From a virus: a stretch of 64,000 bases of DNA. The stretch lies in IMG/VR virus record IMGVR_UViG_3300042893_001481, one strand, 5' to 3'. The notes beneath the pieces were generated by a model. The model was not told the origin of the DNA and did no database searches. It saw only the letters and a program-made list of their open reading frames with translations. Position numbers and translations under genes: made by a program. Each line of letters opens with the position of its first letter. Position 1 is the first letter of the stretch. This document shows, one piece after another, positions 56,165 through 64,000 of the stretch.

Positions 56165-56551
56165 ATGTTACCCTTCACTTTTTTTCACGGAACATCCTTT
56201 TGTATTGAACAACCCACAGCACCATTTTTTGGAGTTGGGTTGGTAAATGATTTTAATGAAAATGGAATCAATACCTTGGGATATGAACCATATTATATGG
56301 AAAGAGGAGATATGATTTTTCAATCAGATATATGTCACCGAAGTTATGTGGAATGGAGACATTTGATTGATAATAATCCTGGTGATGTAACATATTATTT
56401 ATATGCTGTGTTAAGACCTGATGAAGATTATAGAGAACAAGAAGTTATTAATCTTCATGGAGCAACCGACGTGTTCCCGTTGTTTGTTTTAGAAAATCCT
56501 CGCACAGAATTTGTATTTGAATTTATAATGATACCCAATGAAGAAGTTTAA
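56165..56551 (+). CDS. Hypothetical protein, N-terminal FTFFHG motif
   Basis: ORF track. Confidence 0.6.
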   Translation: MLPFTFFHGTSFCIEQPTAPFFGVGLVNDFNENGINTLGYEPYYMERGDMIFQSDICHRSYVEWRHLIDNNPGDVTYYLYAVLRPDEDYREQEVINLHGATDVFPLFVLENPRTEFVFEFIMIPNEEV

Positions 56552-56840
56552 ATTTTTTTATGATGAGTTTTTGAATTTAACAGAAAACGATGTTAATGAA
56601 ATCCATACACAAATGGAATTATTCGCTCGTGAGTTAGTTACAAGTGGCGAATATGAAACAACAATATTTCCAAAAAAATATGATTTTTTGGGTTACTCAT
56701 ATTACGTATCAAGTGTAACAGAAGGAATAAAAATTAACGATGGTGGAATGATGCCATATCTTGAGGATTATCATAGAGTGATAATGAATTACACTACAAA
56801 CGATTTAATAAACCAAATAAGATTTCAATTTATAATATAA
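56538..56840 (+). CDS. Hypothetical protein, N-terminal FKFF motif
   Basis: ORF track. Confidence 0.6.
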   Translation: MKKFKFFYDEFLNLTENDVNEIHTQMELFARELVTSGEYETTIFPKKYDFLGYSYYVSSVTEGIKINDGGMMPYLEDYHRVIMNYTTNDLINQIRFQFII

Positions 56841-57625
56841 TGGTAAAAATAATTTCAGGATATTCAGGTGAGGGAGGATCCACAACTATCTTAATCAACT
56901 TAACAAATTTATTTAACGAAAAGGGGGTTGAGACAATTTTTTATGGTCCTAATGATTTTCATTTAAATAAATGTAAATCAGGTAAGTCAAATAACATAAA
57001 AGTAGACAAGGATGATATTTTATTAACACATTTTATAAAATTAGAAAAAAGACCAGATGTGAAAAATATTGTATTATGTTGTCATGAAAAATGGTGGTTT
57101 GAAGTTGCGGACATACCAAATTATTGGGATAATTTAGTTTTTAGTCATGAAGAACATAGAAAATATCATAACAGATATGATGGACCCTATATGGTCATCC
57201 CAAATCCAAAAGAACCATTGACACCAATCGATAAACCTGAATTAAATTTGGTTGCTGGTGTTATTGGAACCGTTGAGCGAAGGAAACAAACACATGTTTC
57301 AATTGAAAGAGCGTTGGAGGATGGATGTACAAAAATTTACATTTATGGTAAAATATTAAAGGACGAATATTATAATGAAAATGTAAAGAAATATGAAAAT
57401 CACCCATGTGTTGAATTTGTGGGTTATGTAAATACAAAACAAGATATGTATAATAGTATAGGTAGAGTCTATCATTCATCAAATGGTGAAGTGGCTTGTT
57501 TGGTTAAAGATGAATGTCATTACACAAACACAAAGTTTTTCGGTAACGAACAAACAACACATGAAGTCTCTACACTAAATAATGATGAAATCTTTCTGTT
57601 ATGGAAAGAGGTTTTAAAATTTTAA
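56840..57625 (+). CDS. GT-B (GT4-like) glycosyltransferase
   Basis: GGS, CHE, VIPN, IGTVERRKQ, FVGY, YHSS.GE. Confidence 0.65.
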   Translation: MVKIISGYSGEGGSTTILINLTNLFNEKGVETIFYGPNDFHLNKCKSGKSNNIKVDKDDILLTHFIKLEKRPDVKNIVLCCHEKWWFEVADIPNYWDNLVFSHEEHRKYHNRYDGPYMVIPNPKEPLTPIDKPELNLVAGVIGTVERRKQTHVSIERALEDGCTKIYIYGKILKDEYYNENVKKYENHPCVEFVGYVNTKQDMYNSIGRVYHSSNGEVACLVKDECHYTNTKFFGNEQTTHEVSTLNNDEIFLLWKEVLKF

Positions 57626-57629
57626 TGTT

Positions 57630-58004
57630 ATGAGAGAATTTAAATTATTACGAGGTTATCAAGAAATAAACCCATTAACAAATATTGATTGGAGTACAAT
57701 TAATAGAATAAATGATTTAAATACAATTGTCACCCCATACACACCACATTGGAATGGGATAAACTATACACCTACATGGGTAACTAATCCAGGTTACATA
57801 ATTCCACAACCATATACAATAACAACAACACCTGGTTATGGTACATTTACAATACCAAGTTACGGAACAATAACAACAGGAACCATAACAAGTTCTACTT
57901 TAACAACATCAAACCCAAATGGGATAACTTACACAACGGGAGGTTTCGGTGGAACTTTAACAACAGGCACAGCAAACACATTTTACACCTCAAATATTAA
58001 GTAA
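57630..58004 (+). CDS. Thr-rich low-complexity protein, N-terminal FKLLRG motif
   Basis: ORF track. Confidence 0.6.
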   Translation: MREFKLLRGYQEINPLTNIDWSTINRINDLNTIVTPYTPHWNGINYTPTWVTNPGYIIPQPYTITTTPGYGTFTIPSYGTITTGTITSSTLTTSNPNGITYTTGGFGGTLTTGTANTFYTSNIK

Positions 58005-58429
58005 TGACCAAGTTCAAATTTTTCAGAGGATATGTTGGGACATTAAATGTAATGGATGGACAAACATATGCCACCGCATCGTTTAATGATGACACTCCTG
58101 AAGGTCATATGGGTAGAAGAAGATTGTACCACACTAGAGAGATGTATCAAAGACCTATAGAAGGTGAAGTTATTACTCAACAACAATGGAATTTGAATAG
58201 AGACGCAGCTGCCGAACAAGGGGAAAGATTACATAGAGATTTAAATGATAACCCAATAAGATTATTTCAATCAACAAGAGTAACAACCGTTAACCCAAAG
58301 TTTTGGACGAAGGTAAAGATAGTTCTTCAAGAAAGTTGGAGGTTAGAACCTGTTGGTGTTGTTGTTGTGAGTATATTGTTAACAATGGTTACAATCATTG
58401 GAATTGCTAAATTACTAAATGCGTTTTAA
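58004..58429 (+). CDS. Tail-anchored membrane protein, N-terminal FKFFRG motif
   Basis: C-terminal TM segment. Confidence 0.6.
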   Translation: MTKFKFFRGYVGTLNVMDGQTYATASFNDDTPEGHMGRRRLYHTREMYQRPIEGEVITQQQWNLNRDAAAEQGERLHRDLNDNPIRLFQSTRVTTVNPKFWTKVKIVLQESWRLEPVGVVVVSILLTMVTIIGIAKLLNAF

Positions 58430-58860
58430 TCTTCGTTTTTATCCTTATACACAAAGAAATAGTCACCCTGACTTTGGGTGTACATATCGGTGACATTTAA
58501 ACCGAAATTCAATAAGATTTTACGATACTTTGAGGTTCTACTTTTATTAAACGAACCTATTGCAATTTTCTCATGGACGTTAACCCATTCCTTCAATTTT
58601 CTCGATATCCTACCCCAAGTTTGAATAATTTCACCATTTGATTTAGTTGTTGGTTTCTTCATTTGTGAAGCAACTGAGGTAAATTCTTGTTCATCACTCG
58701 TCAAACCAACTTGGTAGTTTCCATTGTGTTTGTTTTTGGTTAATATCATTGTGTAAGGACCAGCTTCAAATTCATCAATCACGTCTTCACCGTACTGTCT
58801 TAACCTTTCTTGGTCGACACCTAACATCAATAACTCCAATAGAATATCCTGTAATTTCAT
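58426..58860 (-). CDS. Hypothetical protein with MKLQDILLE leader
   Basis: Minus-strand TATTTAT at 58866-58872 supports start at 58860. Confidence 0.6.
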   Translation of the reverse strand: MKLQDILLELLMLGVDQERLRQYGEDVIDEFEAGPYTMILTKNKHNGNYQVGLTSDEQEFTSVASQMKKPTTKSNGEIIQTWGRISRKLKEWVNVHEKIAIGSFNKSRTSKYRKILLNFGLNVTDMYTQSQGDYFFVYKDKNED

Positions 58861-58937
58861 TATTGATAAATATATACCAAAATTTATTTGGTGATTAATA
58901 TTATGTTTGGTATATTTGTACAACAAAACTTATTAAT

Positions 58938-62636: not shown

Positions 62637-62884
62637 TTTACATTTTAATTTACATAATAGGATTTATTCTAACACTAACATTCTTAAAGTTATTCGGTAA
62701 GAAGTTGGGAATTGATTACGACCCACCACACGTATCTGATTATGATGATTGGGAAAATAACGCACAGGCTTATTTGTCCTTTTCAATAACTTGGATCATA
62801 ACTGCACCAATGTTTATTGTTGTTGTTATAATTCGGTTGTTATATAAATTTGCACAATGGTTCTTAAAATACCCAAACGTTTAA
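62633..62884 (+). CDS. Small membrane protein
   Basis: Two TM segments. Confidence 0.55.
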   Translation: MIYILIYIIGFILTLTFLKLFGKKLGIDYDPPHVSDYDDWENNAQAYLSFSITWIITAPMFIVVVIIRLLYKFAQWFLKYPNV

Positions 62885-62885
62885 T

Positions 62886-63086
62886 ATGACACTATTTTTA
62901 ATTTATTGGATAGTAACAACAATATACGGAGTGTATTGGTTGATTAAACATCCATCATCAAGACATGGTGATGACAATGATGAATTTACATTATTGGAAG
63001 TTATTGCTAAAATTTTTCCAGCTGGTTTAATAGCTTGGGCAATTGTTCCAATGTTATTATTACATCAGGTTAAATTCAAAAGATAA
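62886..63086 (+). CDS. Small membrane protein
   Basis: Two TM segments. Confidence 0.55.
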   Translation: MTLFLIYWIVTTIYGVYWLIKHPSSRHGDDNDEFTLLEVIAKIFPAGLIAWAIVPMLLLHQVKFKR

Positions 63087-63553
63087 TGACCGACGCACAA
63101 ATAGTAATATCAGTAATTTTTGCTGTGATATTTTTCGTAATTCTTATTTTTAATGTGGTATCATACCCAAACGTGGAGTTATATAAAAAGAAATATGATG
63201 AATTGAAACGTGGAGTGTATAAGTATGAACCAGATTATGGTGAATCACATTATTTTTATCTATACAGTTACGATATTGCTACTGTAACATTTATACGTAC
63301 TGGTGTTAATATCATATTCTTTCTTGATGGTGATATAAAACTAACAGATAATTTATACATACACAAAAGTCATTTGTTTATGTCATTAGTTAGTTGGTAT
63401 TATTGGAGAAAGTTTCAAAAGTTAAAAGATGAATTGATTAACCAACATAATTTTAATGAGGCATATGCAAGATATAGATTAGGTTATTTGGAATCGTTAC
63501 AAGAACAACCTAAGAAACAAAACAAACTTACCTTCAAATTTTTTAGAGGATGA
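63086..63553 (+). CDS. Membrane-anchored protein with C-terminal FKFFRG motif
   Basis: N-terminal TM segment; ends LTFKFFRG. Confidence 0.6.
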   Translation: MTDAQIVISVIFAVIFFVILIFNVVSYPNVELYKKKYDELKRGVYKYEPDYGESHYFYLYSYDIATVTFIRTGVNIIFFLDGDIKLTDNLYIHKSHLFMSLVSWYYWRKFQKLKDELINQHNFNEAYARYRLGYLESLQEQPKKQNKLTFKFFRG

Positions 63554-63930
63554 TAATACCATTTAAATTTTTTGTGGGGAAGGTTTATACCGATGAATTT
63601 GAATTTCCAAGAGTAAGGAGATCACCAGAACACATAGGTAGAGGATATATTCAAACAATCTTACCGACCGTACCAAATCTCGCAACACTACCAGAACCCA
63701 ACTACGATGCTATGGTTATTAATATTGTAAGGAGACGTATGAACCTTCGTTTATCTTGGAGGGGATATCAAATGCATGTATTTGAACCTGATGGTTATCC
63801 ATTATTAAAGATTGTAAGTGGAATTAATATTGGTGGAATGTTTCACATAGTTTATTTAATTACAAGAGACGGGAATACTGAAAATTATAGAGTAAGTGTC
63901 CCATTGGTTAATTTACAAAGAAGAGGATAA
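63550..63930 (+). CDS. Hypothetical protein, N-terminal FKFFVG motif
   Basis: ORF track. Confidence 0.6.
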   Translation: MIIPFKFFVGKVYTDEFEFPRVRRSPEHIGRGYIQTILPTVPNLATLPEPNYDAMVINIVRRRMNLRLSWRGYQMHVFEPDGYPLLKIVSGINIGGMFHIVYLITRDGNTENYRVSVPLVNLQRRG

Positions 63931-63931
63931 T

Positions 63932-64000
63932 ATGATAAACCAATTTAAATTTTTTGAGGGGAGACCAAAAAGATTATATCACTACGACCTATTGGTTGGA
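63932..64000 (+). CDS. Partial CDS at window edge, N-terminal FKFFEG motif
   Basis: MINQFKFFEGRPKRLYHYDLLVG... Confidence 0.55.
   Translation, partial: MINQFKFFEGRPKRLYHYDLLVG

Follow-up and report, generated by a model that had tools for sequence, protein, structure and literature searches.

The window analysed here, a 64,000-nucleotide stretch of viral DNA (IMG/VR record IMGVR_UViG_3300042893_001481), comes from an uncultured T4-type phage of ~335 kb whose host is probably a member of the Bacteroidota. Many of its small proteins carry at one end a short peptide, F-K-F-F or a close variant, which we call the FKFF tag and which is the subject of this analysis. The window has a GC content of ~30% and contains a Gp23-family capsid fragment; we used a set of 105 genes (open reading frames, ORFs) for it. 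A JGI contig, L036, belongs to the same phage (99.98% identity), and a complete 335,630-bp record, G002, is a 91%-identical relative of the window; L023 is a stretch of G002. In a relative, the full capsid gene finds its nearest cultured-phage match in Flavobacterium phage immuto (44% identity, C-terminal part). We also collected the tagged proteins of relatives from IMG/VR loci, obtaining 126 distinct N-tagged proteins. Searches of GenBank phages by DNA and by protein, of the full-text literature for FKFF paired with phage, and of the ESM Atlas found nothing.

A preliminary description of the DNA had listed ten tag sites, and all ten are present in the sequence as described. The proteins that carry them, together with one untagged ortholog and one promoter element, are as follows (K, lysine; R, arginine).

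26901..27209, minus strand: N-tagged mini-protein MKKFIFFEG (start at 27209) holding a spine-helix piece of the T4-type major capsid protein; 0 K and 10 R beyond residue 12.
27206..27451, minus strand: untagged ortholog starting MPRKKK...; its orthologs are N-tagged (MNFKFFKG or MNFKLLRG) in four relatives.
48465..48848, plus strand: C-tagged membrane protein ending ...KDFKFFQK; lysine not depleted.
56165..56551, plus strand: N-tagged protein MLPFTFFHG, 128 aa; no lysine over its whole length.
56538..56840, plus strand: N-tagged protein MKKFKFFYD, 100 aa.
57630..58004, plus strand: N-tagged protein MREFKLLRGY (FKFF in orthologs) with a low-complexity body rich in Thr, Gly, Pro and Tyr and containing 1 K.
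58004..58429, plus strand: N-tagged protein MTKFKFFRGY, anchored at its tail by a C-terminal transmembrane helix; 866 homologs.
60670..60677, plus strand: TAnnTTTG, a -7 promoter element of Bacteroidota type, placed 27 nt before the tagged gene at 60697.
60697..60924, plus strand: N-tagged protein MDFKFFKGF, 75 aa.
63086..63553, plus strand: C-tagged protein ending ...KLTFKFFRG with an N-terminal transmembrane helix; lysine not depleted.
63550..63930, plus strand: N-tagged protein MIIPFKFFVG; residues 1-46 without confident structure, residues 50-126 a confident small alpha/beta domain.
63932..64000, plus strand: start of the N-tagged gene MINQFKFFEG, cut by the window end; a 113-aa full ORF in L036 and the next member of a tandem array.

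Membrane anchors, as judged by hydropathy, lie where the preliminary description had placed them: at the N-terminus of both C-tagged proteins and at the C-terminus of 58004-58429, whose tag occupies the free N-terminus opposite the anchor. The C-terminal tag of 63086..63553 is kept in orthologs.

The tag is confined to protein ends. Across the 105 ORFs, every in-frame F-[KTI]-F-F lies at most 5 residues from the start codon or 2 residues before the stop, and we found no internal in-frame FKFF in the real ORFs of the window. Six full ORFs have F-x-F-[FL] within their first 10 residues; when residues were shuffled within each protein 2000 times, the average was 0.33 and no shuffle exceeded 3. 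Two trivial accounts had been named in advance, a frequency matching the AT-rich background and conservation of the DNA regardless of frame. Neither holds: the motif is far above background at protein ends and its conservation depends on the reading frame. Its first Phe falls 2-4 codons after the ATG, spaced in whole codons and always in frame. With its flanks, the consensus is approximately x-[P/E/D]-F-K-F-F-[R/Q/K]-[G/K], around a core of F-K-F-[FL].

Codon usage within the motif and its distribution along a whole genome reveal what is being conserved. Among the 126 distinct tagged proteins, the codons vary as had been claimed, with TTT/TTC ratios of 65/35, 61/39 and 74/26 at the Phe positions (background 79/21) and an AAA/AAG ratio of 71/29 (background 80/20), and synonymous sites in the motif exceed the genome average in variability. 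The complete genome G002 contains 36 copies of the 12-mer TTYAARTTYTTY, compared with 7 of a reversed control. Ten copies form the main array (read in L023), where nine encode N-terminal tags and one a C-terminal tag. We read 25 of the 26 scattered copies: 3 are N-terminal tags, and we regard the other 22 as non-coding background because their frames run at most 35 codons to the next stop. Since the out-of-frame copies are at background level, the DNA word has no special status; with these 25 copies and the array read, the translated word was found in real genes only at protein ends. Selection thus acts on the peptide and not on the DNA. A DNA-level motif (TTTAAATTTTT) was considered and ruled out, as synonymous sites vary above background and the out-of-frame copies in G002 are plain background. 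Neither Flavobacterium phage immuto nor LR756508 (484 kb), two T4-like phages that lack the tag, is enriched in the 12-mer.

The same peptide heads a large and varied set of proteins. Loci of IMG/VR relatives contain dozens of small ORFs starting M-x(1-3)-F-K-F-[FL]-x-[G/K/N/D/E]. With the tag removed, BLAST separates the 126 N-tagged proteins into about 25-30 mutually unrelated families, with lengths of 54-190 aa. The earlier statement that the remainder of each protein is unrelated therefore stands for the most part, with the correction that some proteins share reshuffled modules. They are mosaics in which the same C-terminal modules recur behind different middles (L003, L005, L008, L010, L013), for example ...YYNTDDFVFSDV...PDHPMWNFPDII and ...LLKIVSGINIGGMFHIVYLITRDGNTENYRVSVPLVNLQRRG. 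Pfam and PHROG searches of the tagged proteins returned no family except capsid (Gp23) fragments. In L023, ~18 tagged genes follow one another within 8 kb; this array starts at the point matching the window end, and the array of the window's own phage continues in the same way in L036. The 58004-58429 family has 866 homologs in public metagenomes, and among the best 120 of these the tag is kept in 111, with F4 and F6 invariant; the remaining 9 look like truncated gene calls. The start MIKPFKFF was found in only 13 IMG/VR stretches, mostly large contigs, several of them from records already among the relatives. C-terminal tags are rarer; seven C-tagged proteins were compared, and such tags occur in three independent families. 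The tag is a modular linear motif on the free end of small proteins that are largely unrelated, as proposed in the preliminary description, and it is conserved in orthologs. That description is thus supported in part; the single common partner and the possible role as host-takeover or anti-defence adaptors that it also put forward are conjectural.

The preliminary description had overlooked the feature that says most about what a partner would do: the bodies behind the N-terminal tag are strikingly poor in lysine. In N-tagged bodies lysine makes up 2.4% of residues, compared with 8.7% in small ORFs without the tag from the same loci (Mann-Whitney p=2e-42), and arginine 7.3%, compared with 4.5%, at equal GC (0.333 and 0.330). 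By family, lysine is below 4% in 28 of 30 N-tagged families (p=1e-14), and 22 of 115 tagged proteins have no lysine beyond residue 12, as opposed to 5 of 425 controls. When window ORFs of more than 60 aa are ranked by K/(K+R), the bottom five are all N-tagged. The shortage is one of codons read in frame: AAA falls from 5.96% in untagged to 1.25% in tagged genes (a 4.8-fold drop) and AAG from 2.47% to 0.84% (2.9-fold), whereas out-of-frame AAA in tagged genes drops only 1.4-fold. The residues gained in N-tagged bodies are R, T, N, M, Y and, weakly, I, all of which except Y are one-step neighbours of Lys codons. Along the protein, lysine is common from -2 to +9 around the motif and then falls to about 1%, and in soluble tagged members it stays low as far as the C-terminus. 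In the tail-anchored 58004-58429, the few remaining lysines (K103, K105 and K136) flank the membrane helix and are invariant or nearly so. Three other origins of this desert or of the tag were considered and rejected. Avoidance of Lys codons through tRNA-Lys cleavage or an RNA nuclease is ruled out by the K-rich tag and the barely depleted out-of-frame AAA. Co-translational scanning, in which the last 30-40 residues would be shielded in the ribosome tunnel, is ruled out because soluble members are K-poor to the C-terminus. Codon bias at translation starts is ruled out as it leaves the fixed F-K-F-F order, the C-terminal copies and the lysine desert unexplained.

The tag itself is rich in lysine. 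At least one K stands within the first ~13 residues of 113 of 115 tagged proteins, the tag carrying 2-3 K there, and position +1 of the tag is K in 89%; the conserved alternatives at this position are V, I, N and T, with R in only 2%. Tag variants FVFF, FIFF and FIFL are conserved, and MTKFVFFRGY, MTKFIFLRGY and MTRFIFFRGY recur among homologs of 58004-58429. Of these, MTRFIFFRGY has no K within the first 10 residues, and 56165-56551 has none anywhere. Where the tag lacks K at +1, the rest of the head contains lysine no more often than background. The tag's own lysine is apparently dispensable, and the conserved K-less variants, together with the one K-free member, favour lysine avoidance in the body over an acceptor lysine in the tag.

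Two single cases tie the desert to the tag. The protein at 27206-27451, encoded just upstream of the capsid-fragment gene, is the only ortholog of its tagged mini-protein without a tag. Beyond residue 12 it has 5 K and 1 R, where the tagged orthologs of four relatives have 1-2 K and 4-6 R; at aligned positions it carries K where these carry R or T. In the tagged capsid fragment at 26901-27209, K344, which is invariant in true capsid proteins, is replaced (RKLKA to RTLRA). Both cases point the same way, and across the collected proteins the lysine desert and its link with the tag are evident. As a separate observation, 27206-27451 ends ...KFFKLFAREKLS, a conserved C-terminal stretch containing FKLF.

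We built two AlphaFold models from family alignments. For 63550-63930, the predicted local distance difference test score (pLDDT) is below 50 at residues 1-46, tag included, and about 90 at residues 50-126; a Foldseek search with this folded domain gave no clear fold match (best E=0.06). For 58004-58429, the tag region is of low confidence within a poor model (mean pLDDT 58). These models suggest that the tag sits on a flexible N-terminal stretch.

Promoter-like elements hint at when the tagged genes are expressed. The Bacteroidota-type element TAnnTTTG is enriched between genes, with 14 of its 114 matches in the window being intergenic although intergenic DNA is 4.9% of the window. Plus-strand elements precede genes by 25-53 nt; 55538, 58938 and the tagged 60697 are among the genes concerned.
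33468, 36890, 46692, 50707, 52457, 53856, 55511, 58911 and 60670, plus strand: TAnnTTTG elements, 25-30 nt before gene starts.
The T4 late box TATAAATA was looked for upstream of the tagged genes and not found. These promoter-like motifs suggest early transcription by the host RNA polymerase and a Bacteroidota host.

A second tagged family probably also carries a piece of the capsid protein. In most relatives, the 63550-63930 family contains L-P-x-x-R-R-x-x-G-R-T-I-A-Q-D-L-V-P-V-Q-P, which aligns with F-P-I-I-R-R-V-F-S-K-L-L-A-N-D-I-V-S-V-Q-A from the N-arm of the phage's own capsid protein (BLASTP E=0.002; hhalign probability 61%, E=8e-5; Pfam Gp23 19.8 bits, below the cut-off). We grade the match as only probable because a PDB profile search for the N-arm module gave no confirmation. 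Tagged relatives that bear the piece (RR..GRTIAQDLVPVQP) are the following.
L031:5456-5920: N-arm-bearing tagged relative.
L023:5576-6046: N-arm-bearing tagged relative.
L021:3124-3594: N-arm-bearing tagged relative.
In the window's own copy it is shortened to RVRRSPEHI. This N-arm stretch may correspond to the T4 Gol region. According to a review, no part of gp23 is better conserved than the Gol region, which binds EF-Tu (PMC3014915).

We favour, with moderate confidence, the explanation that FKFF is a terminal docking peptide for a common reader that probably works on lysine. Placed on the free N-terminal, or rarely C-terminal, end of some 30 families of small proteins, F-K-F-[FL] would serve as a short linear docking peptide that plugs interchangeable early proteins onto one reader. 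The reader would carry or recruit a lysine-directed activity, be it ligation, modification or cleavage, which the tagged proteins would escape by offering no lysine. They would then act as exchangeable targeting subunits (adaptors) or as inhibitors, and not as lysine-bearing substrates. Because the bodies behind the N-terminal tag are purged of lysine, a lysine-directed reader seems most likely; the existence of one reader, its action on lysine and the adaptor role are what we infer from the tagged proteins. Several observations weigh against this explanation. Searches of the relative G001 for ThiF/E1, transglutaminase, GNAT and PqqD-like domains found none. The seven C-tagged proteins are not lysine-depleted, which a simple lysine-directed reader would not predict. 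Early expression is read from promoter-like motifs only, and the evidence from tag loss comes from one family. Lysine depletion could also stem from compartment chemistry or from resistance to a lysine-specific protease.

One gene of the window follows the tag across genomes. Homologs of the protein at 8806-10308 turned up in each of the five substantial tag-bearing records that were searched, at 62% identity in some and only 29% in G002 and G006, and in neither of two T4-like phages without the tag.
G001:179028-180512: homolog of the 8806-10308 protein.
G003:60909-62375: homolog of the 8806-10308 protein.
G004:99380-100846: homolog of the 8806-10308 protein.
G006:91713-93137: homolog of the 8806-10308 protein.
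G002:280280-281722: homolog of the 8806-10308 protein.
This co-occurrence is confounded by shared ancestry, and Pfam and PDB sequence searches of the protein gave no ligase signal. A bolder version of our explanation, speculative and unlikely, would make FKFF the docking box of an undescribed lysine-directed tagging or ligation machine in phage-infected Bacteroidota. One candidate for it, the putative lineage-specific ligase/Hint/cysteine-peptide protein at 8806-10308, would act as a Pup- or ubiquitin-like conjugation system, and the lysine-free tagged proteins would be interchangeable target-recognition subunits, some using pieces of the phage's own capsid protein as bait for host capsid-binding proteins (immune sensors, EF-Tu).

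Other readings of the tag account for parts of the evidence. It may be a leader-like recognition label that presents the proteins as substrates to phage tailoring enzymes (glycosyltransferases, sulfotransferase-like proteins, oxygenases, a ligase), with body lysine removed so that a lysine-directed step stays in the tag region or never occurs. Tagged genes are indeed interspersed with tailoring genes, two mini-proteins lie inside a glycosyltransferase operon, and the Thr/Gly/Pro/Tyr-rich 57630-58004 follows a gene that is glycosyltransferase-like by eye, although Pfam found no family there; the near-universal lysine in the first ~13 residues and the presence of the 8806-10308 gene alongside the tag also fit. 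We nevertheless think this unlikely, given the conserved tags without lysine (FVFF, FIFF; MTRFIFFRGY), the wholly K-free member and the absence of any compensating lysine in the head when +1 is not K. Furthermore, the bodies are no short core peptides but membrane proteins or folded domains 60-190 aa in length, the PqqD domain for which G001 was searched is of the type that forms a recognition element (RRE) for ribosomally synthesized and post-translationally modified peptides (RiPPs) and was not found, and the gene co-occurrence has the confounder given above. A terminal degron or adaptor tail that ClpXP or another AAA+ protease would read, in the manner of ssrA-type end tags or the ClpX-binding C-terminal tail of SspB, marking short-lived early proteins or delivering targets, would suit a tag that works at either end and is short, aromatic, basic and placed on a stretch without confident structure. 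The relative G001 encodes a strong ClpP homolog (C1:111931-112452, E=1e-55), far from the head genes. This reading is rather improbable in our view, as it leaves the lysine desert unexplained; we know of no bacterial AAA+ protease that uses lysine and of no known degron that the tag resembles in sequence. The ClpP gene, moreover, was found in the relative G001, and a ClpP-like gene is present also in the tag-free LR756508.

That the phage is of T4 type, with pieces of the major capsid protein in two tagged families, raises the prospect of a head-loading signal, by which the tag would bind scaffold or shell and the small proteins would be packed into the capsid and injected. The logic is that of the T4 internal proteins, diverse proteins in which only an N-terminal capsid targeting sequence (CTS) is conserved and common (PMC3012670). 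We find such a role quite doubtful, since 17% of tagged proteins, compared with 25% of untagged ones, have [LI]-x-E within residues 8-30, and 42 of 115 tagged proteins have none at all. C-terminal tags and membrane-anchored members also speak against it, the tag is missing from the true capsid protein and from the product of the gene immediately before it (taken as the scaffold), and host-type promoter elements rather than TATAAATA precede tagged genes. Lastly, there may be no common reader, the shared end being a relic of array duplication and recombination with a common 5' module, or else a signal in the DNA or for the start of translation. A relic would be in keeping with the tandem arrays, in which modules have obviously been shuffled, and AT-rich codons (AAA, TTT) are generally common just after start codons, as in the untagged control. 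But synonymous sites vary above background, and DNA identity is therefore too low and too short for recombination or a DNA signal. About 30 families and 866 homologs preserve the exact F-K-F-F order, the same peptide appears at the C-termini of three independent families, and neither the desert nor its loss together with the tag would be explained. Synonymous variability, the N-tag-specific desert and the tag-loss ortholog already largely refute this reading, which we regard as highly improbable.

Should the tag be a docking peptide as we favour, each genome of a giant freshwater phage lineage would be spending several dozen of its genes on a plug-in system with one address peptide, pairing many exchangeable bodies with a reader that works on lysine. 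To our knowledge, no lysine-directed targeting system has been described for phages of Gram-negative bacteria. The desert is unusually clean, arising in a genome of 30% GC, being specific to the tag and being reversed in one tagless ortholog, which makes the long-standing idea of selection on lysine deserts directly testable in a bacterial system. In addition, the tagged capsid fragments could show how the phage handles host factors that recognise capsid protein.

Several neighbouring genes deserve mention. At 56840-57625, directly before 57630-58004, lies a 261-aa protein whose N-terminus appears glycosyltransferase-like by eye (GEGGSTT) and for which Pfam returned no family; the two could be enzyme and substrate. 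Two enzyme-sized proteins in the FKFF region, at 60926-62077 and 62079-62636, end ...YKTLI and ...KTQDLI. The former end fits the class-I PDZ-ligand pattern ([S/T]-x-hydrophobic at the C-terminus) and the latter does not; 62079-62636 also has a sulfotransferase-like PRSGST loop. The gene at 58938-59234 lies inside the tagged region under its own host-type promoter. Its 98-aa product is rich in cysteine and, with the motifs CPACNG and CGNCGYG, is reminiscent of a DnaJ-type zinc finger. Further genes of the window are listed here.

33496-35388: PcfJ-like protein.
36920-37909: C5 cytosine DNA methylase.
43177-44712: wall-degrading protein, 511 aa (peptidoglycan-binding domain, M23 peptidase, glucosaminidase).
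53881-55176: FG-GAP repeat protein with a signal-peptide-like start.

Among known systems, the T4 CTS is close in design: there too, diverse and fast-evolving small proteins of a T4-type phage have nothing in common but a conserved N-terminal peptide of about 10 residues. Its sequence, MKTYQEFIAE, is unlike that of the FKFF tag. The tag is set apart from the CTS by three tested features, as no prohead-protease site ([L/I]-x-E) is enriched behind it, it also occurs at C-termini and some of its bearers are anchored in the membrane. FKFF genes are, moreover, preceded by host (early)-type promoter elements, and the tagged bodies are lysine deserts, which we do not know from T4 internal proteins. 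Other short terminal peptides that bring unrelated proteins to one reader are the cargo-loading peptides of encapsulins, the encapsulation peptides of microcompartments and the ClpX-binding tail of SspB. Like FKFF, these sit on a flexible N- or C-terminal end; they share no sequence similarity with it, and we know of none that is accompanied by lysine depletion. Of RiPP leaders and their RRE, we found neither a PqqD-like element in G001 nor bodies that are short core peptides, since these measure 50-180 aa and include a confidently folded domain and membrane anchors. The short peptide on a free flexible terminus that characterises AAA+ degrons is present here according to the models, that of 58004-58429 being of low confidence overall.

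Lysine deserts are themselves known from the F-box, SOCS-box and BC-box receptors of lysine-directed ligases (PMC10665810, PMC10169902, PMC13696103). These receptors likewise combine a short common docking element with a variable target-binding body in expanding gene families, and their bodies are K-depleted with lysines clustered elsewhere. In the phage, the depletion is specific to the N-tagged bodies and not a matter of base composition. They differ in being eukaryotic and serving a known ligase, whereas no E1-like gene was found in G001, and in docking through a folded 40-residue box as opposed to a terminal motif of 4-8 residues, so that we offer the comparison as an analogy of design only. 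Closer to phages, lysine deserts are enriched in Actinobacteria and Mycobacterium phages, for which a Pup-proteasome hypothesis has been put forward (PMC13696103). Both cases involve phage proteins with long lysine-free stretches, discussed as an escape from lysine-directed tagging. Theirs, however, are proteome-wide and confounded by high GC, whereas here a GC content of ~30% favours lysine and only the N-tagged proteins are depleted, at equal GC.

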